DNA of 64,000 nt from Octopus vulgaris (Eukaryota): the NCBI GenBank assembly GCA_951406725.2, contig OX597836.1, positions 23,622,001 through 23,686,000 of the forward strand, given 5' to 3'. Shown piece by piece: positions 2,668 through 63,418 of this stretch. Positions within the stretch are counted from its first letter, which is position 1, and the number at the start of each line of letters is the position of its first letter. The notes under the pieces were generated by a model. The model was not told the origin of the DNA. It saw nothing but the letters and a program-made list of their open reading frames with translations, and did no database searches. Made by a program: the position numbers and the translations under genes.

Positions 2668-3056
2668 GAGTGGAGGCGCAATGGCCCAGTGGTTAGGGCA
2701 GCGGACTCGCGGTCATAGGATCGCGGTTTCGATTCCCAGACCGGGCATTGTGAGTGTTTATTGAGCGAAAACACCTAAAGCTCCACGAGGCTCCGGCAGG
2801 GGATGGTGGTGATCCCTGCTGTGCTCTTTCACCACAACTTTCTCTCACTCTTACTTCCTGTTTCTGTTGTACCTGTATTTCAAAGGGCCGGCCTTGTCAC
2901 TCTCTGTGTCACGCTGAATATCCCCGAGAACTACGTTAAGGGTACACGTGTCTGTGGAGTGCTCAGCCACTTACACGTTAATTTCACGAGCAGGCTGTTC
3001 CGTTGATTCGGATCAACCGGAACCCTCATCGTCGTAACCGACGGAGTGCTTCCACC
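2668..3056 (+). mobile_element. tRNA-derived SINE family B (resembles octopus OR-type SINEs)
   Basis: A box tggcccagtgg, B box ggtttcgattcc; TSD acactcacacttgt at 2654-2667 and 3057-3070; near-identical copies elsewhere. Confidence 0.92.
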
Positions 3057-4539: not shown

Positions 4540-4930
4540 ATATAATTAATTAATAAATAAAACATATGCATATATACATACATATATGTACGTACCTACC
4601 TCTACATGTATATATACATACATATATGGGTACAGGACACCAAAAAACGTCGACCACAATGAGAAACGAAAACATAAACACAAAACCAAGGAACTGGACA
4701 TTTTTCTTAAACAACAACAAAAAATAGAGTACAGGACATACAGAACAAGGAAAATTCCCCTTCTTCAGTTGCCTCTGTTTCAGCTACTCGTGGCGTAGAT
4801 GAAACAAAGGCGACTGTCGACGTTTTCTTGGTGTCCTGTACCCATATATGCATGTATATATACATGTAGAGGTAGGTACGTACATATATGTATGTATGTA
4901 TGCATATGTTTTATTTATTTATTAATTTAT
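4540..4930. mobile_element. Penelope-like pseudo-LTR fragment with inverted duplication
   Basis: Same family as 8010-8900 and 37215-37820; arms about 4543-4653 and 4816-4928 are reverse complements. Confidence 0.7.
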
Positions 4931-4953
4931 GTATATATATATATATACATAAG

Positions 4954-5300
4954 GGAGGCGCAATGGCCCAGTGGTTAGGGCAGCGGACTCGCGGTCATAG
5001 GATCGCGGTTTCGATTCCCAGACCGGGCGTTGTGAGTGTTTATTGAGCGAAAACACCTAAAAGCTCCACGAGGCTCCGGCAGGGGATGGTGGTGATCCCT
5101 GCTGTACTTTTTCACCACAACTTTCTCTCACTCTTACTTCCTGTTTCTGTTGTACCTGTATTTCAAAGGGCCGAGAACTACGTTAAGGGTGCACGTGTCT
5201 GTGGAGTGCTCAGCCACTTACACGTTAATTTCACGAGCAGGCTGTTCCGTTGATTCGGATCAACCGGAACTCTCATCATCGTAACCGACGGAGTGCTTCC
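4954..5300 (+). mobile_element. SINE family B copy with internal deletion
   Basis: Near-identical to 2668-3056 but lacks about 35 bp between aagggccg and agaactac. Confidence 0.92.
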
Positions 5301-5329
5301 AATATATATATATATATACGTTGCATATC

Positions 5330-8230: not shown

Positions 8231-8306
8231 CCCCTTCTTCAGTCGCCTTAATTTCATCTACTCCACGTTTCGAAGGTCAAGGCGATACATGACTTCAATG
8301 AAAATT
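8231..8306 (-). ncRNA. Rearranged (non-circularly permuted) hammerhead-like motif, core intact
   Basis: rc: UCAUGU-A-UCGCCUU-GA-CCUUC-GAA-ACGUGG-...-AAGGCGA-CUGAAGA-AGGGG. Confidence 0.7.
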
Positions 8307-8732
8307 TCCTTCCCTCGAAAATCAAATTAAATAAAATTTGAGATTTTTTTGCGGAGGGGTAAAAATGGTAACAAAAACAGGACAGTAACGACAGTACAAA
8401 TTATAAACAGTAAAAGACAGGATACGGAGAATAACAGTAACACAAACAAGAAGGGCTGTTAAGCCAAACGAGATAAACAATTTTACGAACGCTATTGTTT
8501 GAGAACGGCAGAGAGCAACAGATATTACCGTCTCTACTTGAAGGAAGCCAGGAGAAGAAAGACAGAAATAGCCATCTCATCACGTGACCGCGACGGGAAA
8601 TAGATGGAATGCCTGGTGTGTGTCTTGTAGCTACCCGCCTAAAAAAATATGAGGAATGGGCCTGGGAATATATATAAAAAAGAAAAGATATTTGATTAAT
8701 GAAAAAGATGGAAAATAGGAGAAAGTTTATTG

Positions 8733-12041: not shown

Positions 12042-12404
12042 GATGACGAGGGTTCCGGTTGATCCGAATCAACGGAACAGCCTGCTCGTGAAATTAACGT
12101 GTAAGTGGCTGAGCACTCCACAGACACGTGCACCTTTAACGTAGTTCTCGGGGATATTCAGCGTGACACAGAGAGTGACAAGGCCGGCCCCTTGAAATAC
12201 AGGTACAACAGAAACAGGAAGTAAGAGTGAGAGAAAGTTGTGGTGAAAGAGTACATCAGGGATCACCACCATCCCCTGCCGGAGCCTCGTGGAGCTTTTA
12301 GGTGTTTTCGCTCAATAAACACTCACAACGCCCGGTCTGGGAATCGAAACCACGATCCTATGACCGAGAGTCCACTGTCCTAACCACTAGGCCATTGCGC
12401 CTCC
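12042..12404 (-). mobile_element. SINE family B copy
   Basis: Reverse complement of 2668-3056. Confidence 0.92.
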
Positions 12405-12759
12405 ACAATACTGAAGTAGCCTACTTATGAACCATCTAATGCATTTCTTGTTCTCCAATATTGTTGTTACCTTCTGCGGGTCAAATAACTTACCTGTGAA
12501 TGCTCGCAGTAGGATTGTGCATCATTTTGATTACGTTGCTGTCTCCTGTGATGCATTGTGACACTTTGTGGAGGAGCTGTATGTAACTTCCAATATTCCT
12601 TTCTTCTGTGTAAGAAATACATTTATGGTGTTGAATGTCACGGTTGGTTGTATTAAGTATTCTCTGGTAGTTCTGGTAATAAGGGAGGCGGTGGATTCGG
12701 TGGGTGGTACCTGAAGTCTGTTGTGAAGCCATGTCTAAAGGATTCTACTAGAATTGGAA

Positions 12760-19727: not shown

Positions 19728-20868
19728 CGTATAGACCTATACTAGTTGTATAGAAAGGCAAGGGAAGGTCCCACCAGTAAGCTACGTTTGTTGAAAAGAA
19801 ATATGCCACCTAACCGAACAAAATCGTTCAGCTAACATGTCCAAATGATAATATTCATATTGACTTTACTGTAAAGCATTCCGCGGAGAGACAACGAACG
19901 ACAAGACACACCACGACTCAGACGAACATTGCAATAACAAACCGCCGCCATTCCACGGACATGTGGCAATCGCTTATGATCTCACAAAAACGAGTGACAA
20001 AATGTAAAATGCTAAAACCAGAGCTTGCATCGGAGTTCGTGCAGAGCTTCACAATTTACATGCATAAGACTCTGTATAAGAGAACGGCACCGACACGAAT
20101 TGGGAACTCTCACAAACTAGATGTTATTCGTGTTCGATGAAATTGCGAGAGAACAACTAGCTGAAATCCGAACTTTCAGCTTTTGGACAATCAATGTAGT
20201 GCTCTGTTGTGCTGTAGTAACTGTACGCTAACTGGTGGGAGTAACAGAGGCCGATCCAAGGGATAATACCGAGTCATAATGGATTACTTCTCTCCAAACT
20301 AACATAAATGGACTCAAGAATAATTTGGGATGGTTTGACACATTCATCAGATGCAAGGCTAAAAACGAGTTTACGAATCACCAGCTACGATGGCATGATA
20401 AATTATCGAAATTATTTGGGAACTACCGCCGAGAAACACTCACAAGCAAATTGATCACCCTCAAACACAATCTACGGGCGAAAAGAGAAAAGCTTCGTTA
20501 TTGTAAAAAATCAAAGGAATGTAAAACGATAAACCGCAAGTTTGCCCGAAACCCAGAAGGTGTATTGTTGTAGTATGAAAGGCATTACAATCAAGGTAGG
20601 AAATACACCTCTCCAGGAAAACCTACAGTCGTTCCAGCGGGGAGTCTTGGATGTAAACAAAGAATACAATCGCGAAGGGAGAATTGTGTTAATGCCTCTC
20701 CTGAAACATATAGGAGTGGCTGTGTGGTAAGTAGCTTGCTTACCAGCCACATGGTTCCGGGTTCAGTCCCACTGCGTGGCACCTTGGGCAAGTATCTTCT
20801 ACTATAGCCACGGGCCAACCAAAGCCTTGTGAGTGGAATTGGTAGACTGAAACGGAAAGAAGTCTGTC

Positions 20869-20914
<46 letters not shown>

Positions 20915-23270
20915 GTGTGTGTGTGTGTGTGTGTGTATACGTTTGTGTGTCTGTCTTTGTCCCCCCAACATCGCTTGACAACCGATGCTGGTGTGTTTAC
21001 GTCCCCGTAACTTATCGGTTCGGCAAAAGAAAACGATAGAATAAGTACTAGGCTTACAAATAATAAGTCCTGGGGTCGATTTTCTCGACTAAAGGCGGTG
21101 CTCCAGCATGGCCGCAGTCAAATGACTGAAACAAGTAAAAGAGTAAGAGTAAAGAGTATATAACATCACCAGTGAAACACTCCTGACAAGTGTTATGAAA
21201 CTGCCGAGGTCACTGGTACAAAAAGCTAACGTTCTATGGGGAAATCTCACATCTCTGTTTTTAAAATGAACCCAAAAAGCAATAAACGCTCAGTTTAATA
21301 TATCAGATTGGCTGACAGTTGCACGGACAACTCTTATATCCAAGAACAAAGAGACCTGTGTGATGAAAAACTATAGGCCCATTAGCATGCTTGAATGTTA
21401 TGTAGAAACTGTATACGGGTTTTCGGAATATGTTTCTCCAATGACCTAAGCCAAACAAATGGTGTGATAACAGATGAACAGGCAGCACGAAAGAAATGGG
21501 TCTGGGGCTGTTCTGAACAGCTCCTCCTCAACAAAGCTGTTCTTTAGGAAGTCAAGCAACATCGCTGTAATCTCTTAACGATATGGCTAAACTACAAGAA
21601 GTCGTTCGACTTTGTGTCTCACTCATCGATGATAGAATCGCTACACGCTTCCAAAGTACCAGCTGCTATGGTGAATTCCATTGAAAAACTGACCACATCA
21701 TGGTCCCAACAATTAACTCTGAAACCTAGTAAAGCAACACCTATTGTTACAAACAGAATTACCTTATCAACAGGTATATTCTGGCTGATATTTTATCTGT
21801 AATGTTGTCTGTATTGTCAGTGTACCCCTTGCCAAAGCTAAATGCCGAAAGGAATAAAACTGATGTCACCCACACATTTTTTGTTGATGACCTAAAGTTA
21901 TATTCTGGTAATATGATCGACACCAAGAGACAATTGTAACTGGTCCCTAAAGGCTCACGAGATATAAGAATGGAGTTTGGGCAAGGTAAATGCTCATACA
22001 TGGTAATCAACCGAGGAAAGATTGTAAACCAGGCAGAGAACATGTATATCAAAGGCTTGTCTATCACCACTATCTCTAATGGTGAAAGCTACAGTTATCT
22101 CGGAATCTATGAGAATGTTTCATACGTTGGTGCTGTGACTAAAGCAAGAATAACAGAAGAGTACACCTTTAAACTCCGGAAAGTATTGTACTCAGAGCTG
22201 TCTGCACTTAAAAATACCATATCTCGATATTTTCGCAGTGCCGGTGCTAGTACCAACGTTTGGGATATTGCACTGGATACTCGATGAGATGATACGCAGC
22301 CTAGTCCTCAAAACCAGAAAGGTACTGGACACTACTGGCAGTTCCGTATTAACAGTGACAACGATAGAAGTTATATAAGACGATGTGATGGCGGTTGAAG
22401 CATAAGGTCTGTCCAAATAGCCTTTGAACGTCACAATGTGTCACTCAAACAACATCCGCTGAACAGTAAAGATAGAAATGAGTACATTCCATGCATACTC
22501 AAAAGTAAGAGCAATAGCATTTTCAGACTTGGAGAAGAACTATTGTGTAGTTAGGTACTCTGAGAATACAACTGTCTCATGTGACCCCCAAAAAGTCTAG
22601 ATTCGCCTACCTAAACAGAAAGTTGGAGAAGTAAGCATCATACCAGCAAAAAGCAATGTATTGGTACATATCCTGTAAACTGCATTGGCACGAAGAGTAG
22701 CCTCTTCTGGACCTGCGATAGATACATTACATCTCACCTAAAAGGAAATGCCTTCGCCATCCAGGAACAAGAAATAGCTACTAAATACCTGATATACAAG
22801 AGGGATAAAGATACCACTTAACTTCCACTTTCTGATAAAAAAAAAATGTCGGCTACACTTTACCAGTGTGAAAGACATCACTCACATCGTCAGCAGCTGC
22901 CCCAAAATGTCTACAAGATACTACCTGCCCCCGAAGCATGGCATAGTTGCAAAGACTATTTACAATGCTATCCACCGGAAGGACTGTCCTGGCGTATACC
23001 TCAAAGGCATGTCAGAACCGGCAGGTATTGACATCTTTAAGAGCAAGGAATAATGGTATTCACACCTTTAAAAACATCAATTCGGTGCAAACATAGCAAG
23101 CCTGATATTGTCCTGTAGAACAGGGAACAAAAGCCATGCACTGTTGCAGAGGTCAGCTGCCCAGTGGATGTGAATGTACCATTAAAAGTCCAGGAGAAAG
23201 CGGACATTTATGGTGTATTCATGAGTGACTTACACCTCTGGTACCCTGACTATAAACTCTCATATCTTAT
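19728..23270 (+). mobile_element. Decayed R4/Dong-type non-LTR retrotransposon (RT + CCHC + RLE), interrupted by SINE A
   Basis: Frameshifted motifs NYRP..CLN, WGCSEQLLLNKAV, WLNYKKSFDFVSH, FFVDDLKLY, MEFGQGKC, YSYLGI, DITHIVSSCPKM..RYYL..HGIVAK, SKPDIVL, EVSCP. Confidence 0.88.
20712..21157 (+). mobile_element. SINE family A, full length, nested in the R4-type element
   Basis: Head, body, internal (TA)n(TG)n and gagtaa-type tail. Confidence 0.93.
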
Positions 23271-27301: not shown

Positions 27302-27305
27302 ACGC

Positions 27306-27483
27306 AGGAATGGCTGTGTGGTAAGTAGCTTGCTTACCAACCACATGGTTCCGGATTCAGTCCCACTGCGTGACACCTTGGGCAAGTTTCTTCTACCATA
27401 GTGTCGGGCTGACCAAAGCCTTATGAGTGGATTTAGCAGACGGCAACTGAAAGAAGCCCGTCGTATATATATATATATGTGTG

Positions 27484-27554
<71 letters not shown>

Positions 27555-27771
27555 TGTGTGTGTGTGTGTGTGTGTCCACCATTGCTTGATAACCGATGTT
27601 AGTGCGTTTACGTATCCGTAATTTAGCGGTTCGGCAAAAGAGACCGATAGAATAAGTACTAGGCTTACAAAGAATAAGTCCTGGATTCGATTTGTTCGAC
27701 TATAGGGCGGTGCTCCAGCATGGCTGCAGTCAAATGACTGAAACAAGTAGAAGAATAGAAGACTAAAAGAA
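27306..27771 (+). mobile_element. SINE family A, full length
   Basis: Matches 20712-21157; internal (TG)n expanded. Confidence 0.92.
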
Positions 27772-28829
27772 ATACATACATACATATGCAGAGAGTGGCA
27801 AATCCATACGAGTATACAGGCGTTGATAGCGATTCAACGGAAATGTTGCCATGTTAAGTTGTCAGAAGCTGTTAAGGTACTTAGAAAAGTGACGGATTTA
27901 TGGGGTTAACAGCTGACAATATCAAACTTGAACCTCTCTCGATGCGTGTCACATACTTCGAAATATATTAATCATTATCACCGTTATCAGTATCATCGTC
28001 GTCGTCGTCATCATCATCATCATCATCATCATAATCATCACCATCATAATCATCATCATCATTAACATTACAACTACCATTACCTTTTACACTAATGCCG
28101 CCCTGTCGCCGCTGCCCCTGCTACCACCACTACTATCGCACACCTCCCCCGTTGCCGCCGCTGCCACCGCCGCCGTCACCACCACCACCACCACCACCAC
28201 CACCACCACCACCACCATAACCACCACTATCATTATCTTGCTCCTTCTCCTCCTCCCTCTCCTCAACCTCATCCTCAGCATCACCATCTTGCACCTCTTC
28301 CTCCTCCCTCTCCTCACCAGCATCATCATCATTCTAAACATGTATAGGAACCTATCTTTTTCTCAGTTACATGAACACATTGGTTAACTTGTTGAGTGTT
28401 ATGTCACAATAACAGCGTGTGACATTTGATCAGTTTAACAAGCAGCAATTCAGGAATTTACATGATAAATATATTGTTGGCAGCATTAGCAAGAAAACAA
28501 CAAGTCCGTCCACAATGCCTATTTAATAAATAAGAGACACATCAATATTTGCAGCTATTATTAGTAATAGTATTCATGTGCTATGTATATTGAACATAGA
28601 ACAATTAATGACAATAGATAAATGCTTCGAATATAGAAGCCACACAAAAGCAATGAGGAAAACAAGAGATTAAAGAAAAAAGAAATAAAGGCACAAAAAA
28701 ACAATGGAATAAATAGATGAAACTAAAGTTTAATGCTGTAGACTCTTTAGCACTTACCAACCTCGGCTGCCAGTTCGTGGCCGTTTGCTTCTCATTGAAG
28801 AGTTACTTTTGGTTCGTTTCAAAAACTGG

Positions 28830-34908: not shown

Positions 34909-34954
<46 letters not shown>

Positions 34955-34955
<1 letters not shown>

Positions 34956-35139
34956 TCTCTTTTACTCTTTTACTTGTTTCAGTCATTTGACTGCGGCCAT
35001 ACTGGAGCACCGCCTTTAGTCGAGCAAATCGACCCCGGGACTATAGCAGAAGACACTTGCCCAAGATGCCACGCAGTGGGACTGAACCCGGAACCATGTG
35101 GTTGGTTAGCAAGCTACTTACAACACAGCCACTCCTGCG

Positions 35140-37186: not shown

Positions 37187-37214
37187 GTATATATATATGT
37201 ATGTATGTATATAT

Positions 37215-37955
37215 AGTGTAATAAATAGAATATATGCATACATACATACATATATGTACGTACCTACATCTACATGTATATATACATGCATATATAAATA
37301 TATATACGTGAGTACAGGACACCACAATTAGACGCAGAACTCAACGAGACGAAAACATTAAAACAAGCATGGAACGAACCTTTTTTTTACAAAGAAAAAA
37401 CAGAGTACTACACAAGGAAAAATCCCCTTCATCAACTGTCCCTAGTTCAACTCCAGCGTGTTTCGAAGGTGAGGACAGAACACGACTCGTCGAACTAGCC
37501 CTTCCTGCGAAGAAATTAAAGGAAATTACTTCGCAGAGGGGTAAAACAAGAAAAGAACAAAATGTGACACAAACAGGACGTAAAAACGATACAAATAAAA
37601 TTACAAAATAAAATACAAAATAAAATGCAAAATAAAAATACAATTACAAAAAAATACAATACAAGAAATAAAAACACACAAGAAAACAACCAAAGAGGGC
37701 CTTTTTTGCCTAGACGAGGAGAGATTCAAGGCGCGCAAGAAAACCGTGTGTTTACAGTTAGAAGGCCGCATGCAAAAGGAAGTATTTGGCCGGCTATGAG
37801 AGAGATGAGGAGGAGTGAGAGAGAGATAGTATTTCTTGTATTGTATTTTTTTGTAATTGTATTTTTATTTTGTATTTTATTTTGTATTTTATTTTGTAAT
37901 TTTATTTGTATCGTTTTTACGTCCTGTTTGTGTCACATTTTGTTCTTTCCTTGGA
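37215..37955 (-). mobile_element. PLE pseudo-LTR (family of 8010-8900) with inverted duplication
   Basis: Homologous to 8020-8420; IR arms 37547-37669 and 37830-37952. Confidence 0.72.
37424..37498 (-). ncRNA. Rearranged hammerhead-like motif
   Basis: rc: CUAGUUCGAC-gagu-CGUGU-U-CUGUCCU-CA-CCUUC-GAA-ACACG-cugga-GUUGAACUAG-GGACAG-UUGAUGA-AGGGG. Confidence 0.68.
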
Positions 37956-38185: not shown

Positions 38186-38492
38186 TATCTATCTATCCGC
38201 TCAGTCGAAGTCGACTCTCGGTTACTCGATGGATCAGTGTCCTCCAGTCAGTTCTATCCTGGGTCGCTTCTTTCAGATTGGCTATGTCCATTCCGGTATC
38301 ACTCTTGATGGTGTCAAGCCAGCGGGTTCTTGGCCGGCCTCTTCCTCTCTTGCCACTGACCATTCCGAGCATGATGTCCTTCTCCAGGGATTTTCTCCGC
38401 ATAATATGACCAAAATATGCCAATCTATGCTTGGTGATCCTAGCTTCTAGCGACATTTTCGGCCTGATCTGCTTAAGAACTTCTCCATTGGT
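38186..38492 (-). mobile_element. Young 5'-truncated RTE (BovB-like) LINE
   Basis: Uninterrupted RLAYFGHIMRRKSLEKDIMLGMVSGKRGRGRPRTRWLD..DRTDWR; (TAGA) tail; TSD gtataaccc at 38177-38185 and 38493-38501. Confidence 0.93.
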
Positions 38493-38999
38493 GTATAACC
38501 CATTAATCTTGAAATGCCGTAAAGGTAACCTTGATAGTGAGCACGACGATCTGGGTGTTTCATTGCTGCAAAGGAAGTGTTTGTGTGGACATGTTAATTA
38601 ACGTGTGGTTTGCAGACAATACTTCCAGATTTATAGTAAAGTATTCGGCTCATTGTAAAATATACGGCTCTCAAGTATACATCCGTATAGCTGAAGAGAC
38701 AGTTGTCAAATGTTTGCTCGACATGTCTCAAAGGGGAACTTTGTCAGAGAAGAACCAAAGTGTACCACTTGTATGCTCAATGTCGCTCTGCGGATCGTTT
38801 GACTGATTACAACAGCACTTCGATTATTACAATAGCAGTTTGACTGATTACAATAGCAGTTCGATTATTCGAGTTTGATCTTTTAGGGAGCACAAAACGT
38901 TTCTGGTGGTTTGAACATTTTTCAGGCAGTAATTTGGAATGCTGGTTTTTGGTGAAGGACACTGGCTATGCATTTATGTATGTATGCTACTTATTTTGT

Positions 39000-39275
39000 C
39001 GTTTTTCTTTTGCCGAACCACTACGTTACTGAGACGTAAACAAACCAGCACCGGTTGTCAAGCAGTGGTGAGAGAAAGCACAAAGACACACACACACACA
39101 CATGCAAATGCGAAGGGATTCTTTCAGTTTCTATTAATCAAGTCCACCAGATCTACTCACAAGGCTTTGGTTGGCAAGAGGCTATAGTAGAAGATATTTG
39201 GCACGATGCCGAACAGTGTGAGCGAACTCATGACTACATGGTTGGGAAGCAAGATTTTTAACCACACAACCAGCT
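39000..39275 (-). mobile_element. Diverged SINE family A copy
   Basis: ctcacaaggctttggttggc...ctatagtagaagat...aaccacacaacc is the reverse complement of family A. Confidence 0.75.
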
Positions 39276-62305: not shown

Positions 62306-63100
62306 CCGTCACTAGAAAAACTCTTATATATTTGCAAAGCAGCCTTGTCTTTCATCGCGACCTGGTGGTTACCGCCCGTTGATAAGGGACAATAATCCAG
62401 AAACTAGACCGTGCGTATCACTCAGGCTTGCGAGAAAAGGATTGCCTCCCTTTGCAAACACTTCAAGGGCACTGAAATGGTGTCTAAAGCAAGCTAGAGA
62501 CGATGATCTCCTGGGGCTATAGAGCTACAGTAACACCCCTCCCCTTTGTGGTTAGCCATATTAAAATGGCTTCTATACTTTACATTATCGAGCGGTTACT
62601 GTTTATATCTCATTCTGAGATTTAATAAAGTATACAGATATTTCTGAAGAAACAAGAGAAAGGGTTAGGGGAACAATGAAAAGATTGGTTACTAAGATAA
62701 TATAAGCAATGAGATAATGTGGAAGCCAGAGAGAGAGAGAGAGAGGGAGGAAGAAAGAGAGAGAATTATGAAGTAGACGTAATAATAGAGGAAATTGAAA
62801 GAGGGAAAGTGAAAGGTTAAACGCAGAGAAATGAGGTGTGTGGGAGACAAGTTAGAAGATTTAAATGAGGAGGAAGGAGGGTGTTCTGTAAGAATAGAGG
62901 GGTATAAAGAAGAGAAGATACTGATACAGGAAGCAGGAACAGTCGCGAAGGATGGGCGAGAAGGAGGGGAACCTTCTCGTTTTTAACCAAGACATAATCG
63001 TGCCTTCTCTTCCTCTTTTCTCCATTCTATAAATCGCCAATTAAAACATTGGCCAATTTATAAGAAAATGAAGAATTACTATACGTATGTATGTATGTGT

Positions 63101-63418
63101 GGAGGCGCAATTGCCTAGTGGTTAGGGCAGCAGACTCGCGGTCGCAGGATCGCGGTTTCGATTCCCAGACCGGGCGTTGTGAGTGTTTATTGAGCGAAAA
63201 CACCTAAAAGCTCCACTGTTCTCCGGCAGGGGATGGTGATCCCTGCTGTACTCTTTCACCACTCTTTCTCCCACTCTTTCTTCTGTTGGCCTGCTCGCTT
63301 AGCCAGCGGGATGGCGTCATTCGAAGGCTAAAACAATGCGAACGCATTGTGACCAGCGATGTGTAATGACATCTGATGGTCTGGTCGGTCACGTGATAGA
63401 CATCACGTGATCACGTGA
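63101..63418 (+). mobile_element. SINE family B head with an alternative 3' tail
   Basis: Head matches 2672-2850, then unrelated tail ending in cacgtgat repeats. Confidence 0.88.

Follow-up and report, generated by a model that had tools for sequence, protein, structure and literature searches.

Rearranged hammerhead ribozymes of the types SGC and CSG come from assembled metatranscriptomes, and only two CSG sequences figure in the parts of Eckert et al. (2023; PMC10085705) on which we draw. The published ribozymes of both types are slow, as far as these accounts go. Among mobile elements, Naiads, a group of Penelope-like elements (PLEs), are described in the corresponding parts of Craig et al. 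(2021; PMC8557442) as lacking canonical hammerheads, and cores that fitted no descriptor were flagged there; cephalopod Naiads are held to have been inactivated long ago. For non-LTR retrozymes, a derivation from PLEs has been proposed in the available portion of a recent preprint (bioRxiv 10.64898/2026.07.22.740005).

The site described here lies in a stretch of 64,000 nucleotides of the Octopus vulgaris genome (contig OX597836.1, positions 23,622,001 to 23,686,000), referred to below as the window. It shares with type-SGC the order S, G, CUGANGA and lacks a block C that is continuous with stem II. In the reading we favour, with a probability of roughly 0.8, the site belongs to a short non-coding repeat, of which it is a copy with point mutations. 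Its predicted non-circularly permuted hammerhead, with two helices between A9 and G10.1, likely cuts the transcript, and it is probably a Naiad-type Penelope-like reverse transcriptase (RT) that copies the repeat into (TA)n DNA. This reading is supported by the sequence, the copy number, the pairing and covariation of six helices, the layout of Naiad ends and a pile-up of insertion ends, all of which were observed.

Layout and pairing of the six helices

The predicted ribozyme, its parts and two related copies occupy the following positions of the window.

37424..37541, minus strand: whole predicted ribozyme with six helices, block order leader-S-G-C
37537..37541, minus strand: helix IV, 5' strand CCCCU, partner at 37424-37428
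37505..37536, minus strand: hairpin P0, predicted to stack between stem II and helix IV, pair probability 0.98
37500..37504, minus strand: leader GAAGG, which supplies stem II with its 10.x strand, G10.1 at 37504
37498-37489, minus strand: extra helix P4, 5' strand CUAGUUCGAC
37472..37484, minus strand: block S, comprising the stem III 3' strand, U17 and the stem I 1.x strand
37484-37480, minus strand: stem III, 3' strand CGUGU
37479, minus strand: U17, with the predicted cut between 37479 and 37478
37478-37472, minus strand: stem I, 1.x strand CUGUCCU
37457..37469, minus strand: block G, comprising CCUUC (11.x), G12-A13-A14, A15.1 and the stem III 5' strand
37461-37457, minus strand: stem III, 5' strand ACACG
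37451-37442, minus strand: extra helix P4, 3' strand GUUGAACUAG
37442-37436, minus strand: stem I, 2.x strand (G)GGACAG, of which 37441-37436 are 2.x proper and 37442 is the G in brackets
37435-37429, minus strand: core UUGAUGA, with U3 at 37435
37424-37428, minus strand: helix IV, 3' strand AGGGG, directly after A9
8231..8359, minus strand: copy of subfamily A with the same six helices, an intact CUGAAGA and the triplet GUA, A17 at 8286
4611..4851, minus strand: third copy, A-like, 5'-truncated and inverted, holding the 3' half of the ribozyme only

Along the RNA, the 5' strand of helix IV is followed by P0, the 10.x strand of stem II, the 5' strand of P4 and the run of stem III, position 17 and stem I; then come CCUUC, GAAA and stem III, the 3' strand of P4, stem I with CUGANGA and finally the 3' strand of helix IV. 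The cleavage triplet of the window copy is GUU. A descriptor of all six helices found only two sites in the window, 37424-37541 and the copy at 8231, and gave one match in 30 shuffled windows.

An initial annotation of this DNA had proposed a hammerhead with a rearranged, non-circular order of its blocks, which agrees with the order S-G-C found here. Every string it quoted, including CCUUC-GAAAC, is present on the minus strand where it was placed, although the G at 37442 had been counted twice, in the extra helix and in stem I. The extent given for the feature, 37424..37498, was too short: it reaches 37541, and two helices and the partner of stem II lie further upstream. Homology with the site at 8231 was borne out by 70.6% identity over 201 nt; the sequence quoted for the extra helix of that copy needs amendment, as the window has AAUUUUCAU there and many siblings have AAAUUUCAU.

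For the analysis of covariation, the six-helix model was applied to 31 copies spanning the subfamilies. Altogether 92.8% of 980 cells were paired, compared with 38-48% in slid controls, kinship among the copies inflating the shuffle control, and 19 of 32 pairs were changed on both sides. This supports the compensatory changes reported earlier for the extra helix and for both stem I and stem III, as well as the selection on structure in the source elements that had been deduced from them. In P4 all seven counted pairs change on both sides, and P0 shows U-A/C-G and G-C/A-U changes. Helix IV is paired to 90%, with one change from U-A to G-C and a G-C first pair in locus L124. Four candidate copies stayed unaligned, the pattern having failed to locate their helix IV; L123 entered the set through another copy.

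The leader GAAGG pairs with CCUUC and gives the canonical G10.1-C11.1 in 31/31 copies, while AGGGG pairs with the upstream CCCCU. Within the family this stem II is almost invariant and shows no two-sided change, and the decisive test was for this reason taken from other families. Over 15 families, Watson-Crick pairs were counted in 57/60 positions for stem I, 72/75 for the leader stem II, 58/60 for stem III, 43/60 for P0 and 52/60 for helix IV; locus L284 was not counted, since L282 carries the same ribozyme. None of 2000 partner shuffles reached the total of any of these five helices, though the totals for I, III, P0 and IV are partly circular since the descriptor selects paired helices. G10.1-C11.1 and A15.1-U16.1 were each present in 15/15 families. 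A scan of the core that required only stems I, III and P4, and not II, P0 or IV, returned the same 13 metagenomic loci (see below). All 13 hold a perfect 5-bp upstream partner for the 11.x strand and none holds one directly after A9. We therefore predict from the pairing model that two helices, P0 and IV, are inserted at A9|G10.1 and that a four-way junction results.

In a nested energy model P0, P4 and III form, helix IV reaches 0.05, stems I and II stay at 0.0, and a competing 3' hairpin is favoured. No match to the region 37380-37580 was obtained in Rfam at E values up to 10, and for the whole window only microsatellite-driven miRNA matches appeared among the 150 of 245 matches that were listed.

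Two further candidates were rejected. Pairing of the leader with the 3' tail UUCCUU as a fifth helix fails, since several subfamilies have UUCGUU with the leader unchanged; a 3' splice site at CAG|GAAGG was dismissed, changes at CAG/CGG being matched in the opposite arm of P0. A subfamily present in loci L091 and L121-L123 carries UU in place of the A that follows A9, which would form a U-U pair or a bulge on top of helix IV. A similar UU after A9 was seen in a third family, described below, and in a ctenophore consensus.

The host repeat and the 5' ends of its copies

The ribozyme belongs to a non-coding repeat with a monomer length of about 800 bp. Two pieces of it make up the insertion in the window.

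37213..37829, minus strand: 5'-truncated non-coding monomer copy of subfamily B, ending in (TA)n-rich DNA, 3' boundary approximate
37833..37953, plus strand: piece of this element in inverted orientation, located at the 5' junction, a Penelope-type inverted 5' end

An ORF for an RT or endonuclease belonging to the element (N-terminal GIY-YIG and C-terminal RT) was found neither in it nor beside it. In the genome (2.80 Gb in 227 contigs) the core pattern has 2127 + 2052 = 4,179 exact matches and the backward control none, which places the motif beyond chance; a downstream anchor has 6,419 exact matches, again with none for its backward control. Copies are 91-99% alike. Most are 5'-truncated singles, and partial tandems occur occasionally, with spacings mostly of 711-848 bp. 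(TA)5 or longer follows the 3' end in 78/100 copies, compared with 43/533 background windows.

At 37245-37300 on the minus strand, shortly before the usual 3' end and at the same place in all subfamilies, the element has a conserved near-palindromic stretch rich in TA and GTAC, which is a candidate site for recognition or priming by the RT. A 3' fragment (38193-38597, minus strand) lies about 240 bp from the inverted 5' piece, and we take it to resemble the end of an RTE-type LINE ORF. The window also contains two other families of interspersed repeats (about 200-380 bp), one at 2670-3054, 4954-5301, 12042-12411 and 63093-63287 and one at 1225-2014, 20708-21162, 27303-27787, 34934-35139 and 38987-39272; they are 80-96% alike and stand amid dense microsatellites.

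The CUGANGA core is kept in 28/29 siblings of subfamily B and in 28/30 copies of subfamily A. C3, in the form CUGAUGA, is found in 28 of the 29 closest siblings, the remaining one having GUGAUGA, and U3 is thus private to the window copy, which is moreover about 9 bp shorter than its siblings just 3' of the ribozyme. GUU is the triplet in 29 of 30 copies of subfamily B, with one unparsed, and also in 3/15 families. The subfamily consensus proposed earlier as a check therefore restores CUGAUGA and does not restore GUC or GUA. Likewise, the suggestion that this copy may be inactive holds as regards U3, which likely impairs it, and falls as regards GUU, which is the state of the subfamily and not decay. 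A U3 facing G8 without compensation is strongly impairing. Natural hammerheads with U3 are compensated by A8 in place of the G8 that pairs with C3 (PMC3088659, in part). Because its U3 faces an uncompensated G8, the window copy is likely weak or dead, in an otherwise ordinary insertion.

The 5' ends were mapped for the first 100 anchored copies on contig C1, relative to the predicted scissile bond. Eighteen of the 100 ends fall at -2..+12 and eight at +13..+26, compared with none at -17..-3 and four at -70..-3. Per nucleotide the end hazard is 2.16% at -2..+12, 0.82% at +13..+26 and 0.22% at +27..+150; upstream it is 0 at -17..-3 (720 nt of exposure) and 0.13% at -70..-3. In a scan test with constant hazard a window this full arose in 3/20,000 simulations. 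Most of the ends in the pile-up lie 5-12 nt 3' of the predicted cut and not exactly on it. Genome-wide, the GUU subfamily has 41 distinct loci at which (AT)3 stands 5' of CCUUC, no more than 12 nt away, compared with 3 loci for a control window 20 nt upstream. These are counts without normalisation; in 95 loci, the two 20-mers were met 5 and 2 times. As far as insertion ends can tell, the pile-up suggests cleavage in vivo. As many as 48 of the 100 copies extend past the predicted cut, which indicates that many templates are uncut.

Carriers among Naiad-type elements

The published consensus 3' ends of Naiad_Obim and Naiad_Ovul have the same layout with different stems (PMC8557442 supplement, in part). 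This version of the ribozyme has 192 exact matches in the octopus genome, and in 6/19 loci it lies 1.0-1.7 kb downstream of a decayed Naiad RT on the same strand. Other carriers of the fold, in the genome and in metagenomic loci, match GIY-YIG/RT proteins of the Naiad type. Two protein queries of the genome, with the best candidates scored, yielded decayed Naiad ORFs and no intact one. By blastn at E 1e-3, the monomer gave only inserted copies and one low-complexity match against Naiad 3' UTRs.

The metagenomic loci were retrieved with an alignment of Naiad-type proteins, and the best 80 of 456 confirmed loci were searched. The form opened at helix IV was present on the sense strand in 13/80 loci, on the antisense strand in 0/80 and in 0/240 shuffles. 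It lies downstream of the ORF match in 12 cases and about 800 nt upstream in one (L284). Plain type-CSG occurs in 2/80 loci, L248 and L250, downstream of the ORF. In one locus, L291, the order is C-S-G and A9 is followed immediately by the two inserts, each closed into a hairpin, which places the insertion at A9 independently; in L290 this form is cut off. The remaining 64/80 loci are without any of these forms. Some of them stop shortly behind the ORF or contain part of the motif (L217), and among them is a large clade with long 3' regions in which CUGANGA is absent downstream of the ORF. A scan of the 80 loci with a relaxed core gave no further full motif, and viral contigs contained neither a Naiad relative nor the motif. 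In a quick RT tree the carriers are scattered.

Parsing by eye of a part of the supplement to PMC8557442 revealed the opened form in eight Naiad consensi (a ctenophore entry, three from Acropora, two from octopus and two without name) and type-CSG near the 3' ends of seven consensi in the nematode part of the file; names were deduced from the file order, and the look at the 54 Naiad consensi was a partial one. On balance we favour the view that Naiads have kept a hammerhead that is non-circularly permuted throughout: plain CSG in nematodes, CSG with a closed insert of two hairpins, and, in ctenophores, corals and octopus, the form opened at helix IV. This last form would be active; a Holliday-like four-way junction of RNA would split its core strand at A9|G10.1 and is perhaps a folding switch or one controlled by protein.

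The large clade of the RT tree, L235-L283, consists of PLEs with an N-terminal endonuclease whose loci continue several hundred bases past the ORF, many of them without CUGANGA. Twenty motif-less metagenomic loci gave no match in Rfam at the gathering score, and a self-cleaving motif of another kind may be hidden in the motif-less clade. A third family with the six-helix fold, met by chance in flanking DNA, occurs at L063:1844-1973, L064:2546-2672, L085:2009-2153, L124:129-232 and in L188, all on the minus strand. Its stems are unrelated, its triplet is AUC, and its helix IV is longer and follows a UU insert; it is a short repeat of this genome and ends in (TA)n or TACA repeats. Naiad-type ORFs that run past the RT were noted in L231, L244 and L246 and in proteins P0027-P0040, and several database homologues of such extended ORFs match PF00443 (ubiquitin hydrolase).

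Competing readings, mechanism and known systems

The initial annotation had implied a stem II of CCUUC and AGGGG, that is, a plain type-SGC hammerhead in which the bases after A9 would form that stem and the helices upstream would be accessory. The block order agrees with this, as does the linker of 1-6 nt between stems I and II (PMC10085705), and GGGG/CUUC could form four pairs (two of them G-U) with one extra base, comparable to the extra U that published SGC hammerheads carry in the portions at hand. Nevertheless, a standard 10.1-11.1 pair is absent from all 31 copies and no position covaries. Across the 15 families this stem II stays at chance level with no inserted base (20/75 Watson-Crick, shuffle mean 17.8, reached by 557/2000 shuffles) and equally with one (16/75), the latter variant having been rejected on this count. 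Its duplex is worth -2.8 kcal/mol as opposed to -4.6 for the leader and -7.4 for helix IV, and we regard a type-SGC hammerhead here as very improbable. Alternatively, the fold may be real and its catalysis lost, the structure serving to bind protein or guide the RT and the ends stemming from RT stalling or a protein nuclease. The offset of most ends from the predicted cut would suit such a structure, and an interrupted A9-G10.1 link is absent among the variants in section 8 of PMC3088659, the part that bears on this point. What speaks against it is that the full core, A15.1-U16.1, G10.1-C11.1 and the NUH triplet persist despite unrelated stems, and that the edge of the pile-up is sharp at the scissile bond. 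As for stalling, an RT that has arrived at this bond would already have displaced the 3' strands of I, II, III, P4 and IV, so that no helix would be left until P0, 27 nt further on. Loss of catalysis thus appears improbable.

A different question is which machinery moves the repeat. Even if the ribozyme reading holds, the element may owe its mobility to a Penelope-like lineage other than the Naiads considered here, or may replicate as a retrozyme-like circle. The lack of an intact Naiad ORF among the best candidates scored and of DNA homology to Naiad 3' UTRs would fit such an origin, as would the youth of the copies compared with the early inactivation of cephalopod Naiads (PMC8557442, in part). 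On the other hand, the element resembles Naiads in its fold, in its (TA)n target and in its insertions, which are tandem or inverted, and a consensus from the Hydra section showed the canonical C-G order instead. We consider mobilisation from outside the Naiads unlikely, yet worth keeping in view. In our analysis the driver is most likely a Naiad-type RT; because only decayed ORFs and no similarity to Naiad 3' UTRs were found, this link rests on the fold, the target and the style of insertion.

Taking a catalytic, six-helix hammerhead as the preferred reading, the core, stem II, P0 and helix IV would meet as a four-helix junction, for which the absence of an unpaired base at helix IV in 10/15 families is the basis. 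In such a junction stem II would be kept stacked under A9-G12, and P4 would hold stem I close to stem II. Cutting in an upstream repeat would release the 5' terminus of the template from read-through RNA, and cutting in the last repeat would lead to short insertions of about 200-300 bp. In the simplest reading of the pile-up, the RT would run off the ribozyme-made 5' end and join the target, a few bases being lost. The reaction is probably slow or assisted by protein, since the fold is heavily pseudoknotted and nested folding proceeds without I, II and IV, and most templates may be copied uncut. The hammerhead of a Poseidon element needed its protein, and its cleavage was dispensable for insertion in vitro (PMC11167929, in part).

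Compared with canonical hammerheads of types I-III and the minimal hammerheads of PLEs, the site's predicted fold keeps C3-U4-G5-A6-N7-G8-A9, G12-A13-A14, A15.1-U16.1, G10.1-C11.1 and NUH. It differs from the canonical ones in being pseudoknotted, in having no direct link (0-2 nt) from A9 to the 10.x strand and in the missing three-way junction. With the SGC and CSG types, as presented in the relevant parts of PMC10085705, it has the core, the cyclic block order C to S to G, the short linker between stems I and II and an extra helix near stem I in common. In those types block C is assumed to be uninterrupted and to include the 10.x strand, whereas here the 10.x strand comes as a leader of its own further upstream, and A9 is followed by two inserted helices. 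A further difference concerns the fourth helix, P4 joining the 5' leader to the G-C linker and its type-SGC counterpart joining the G-C linker to the 3' tail. Judged by its sequence, the site is hammerhead-like, with every core feature except the direct A9-G10.1 link, and is not a member of type-SGC. The examples of both types from metatranscriptomes contrast with thousands of copies in an animal genome, so that non-circular permutations extend from a few hundred metatranscriptome sequences to animal genomes.

With the non-LTR retrozymes of the above preprint, in its accessible portion, the element shares non-coding tandem monomers with one hammerhead each. Those hammerheads are of type I and the present one is permuted, and the retrozyme monomers stand in tandem whereas most copies here are 5'-truncated singles. 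With Naiads (PMC8557442, in part) it shares the (TA)n target, partial tandems and inverted 5' ends, and Naiad 3' ends labelled 'HHR_core' or 'HHR_half_core' in that source contain this fold or type-CSG; unlike Naiads, the window element lacks an ORF, and it shows no DNA-level homology to their 3' UTRs. The fold is not given in the portions of PMC8557442 on which we rely, and the mainly open-access literature, as far as it was covered, yielded no description of it or of permuted hammerheads in Naiads. The arrangement breaks the three-block rule by which hammerhead permutations are enumerated. It explains why standard hammerheads were reported to be absent from a clade that is dominant in many invertebrate genomes, and also why descriptors and Rfam miss Naiad hammerheads. 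As insertion ends mark the predicted cut, the role of hammerheads in Penelope-like elements becomes testable, and the two free helices beside the core are an obvious scaffold for structural work and switch design. Set against these known systems, the predicted ribozyme represents a structural variant that is new and that is linked to a major clade of transposons.
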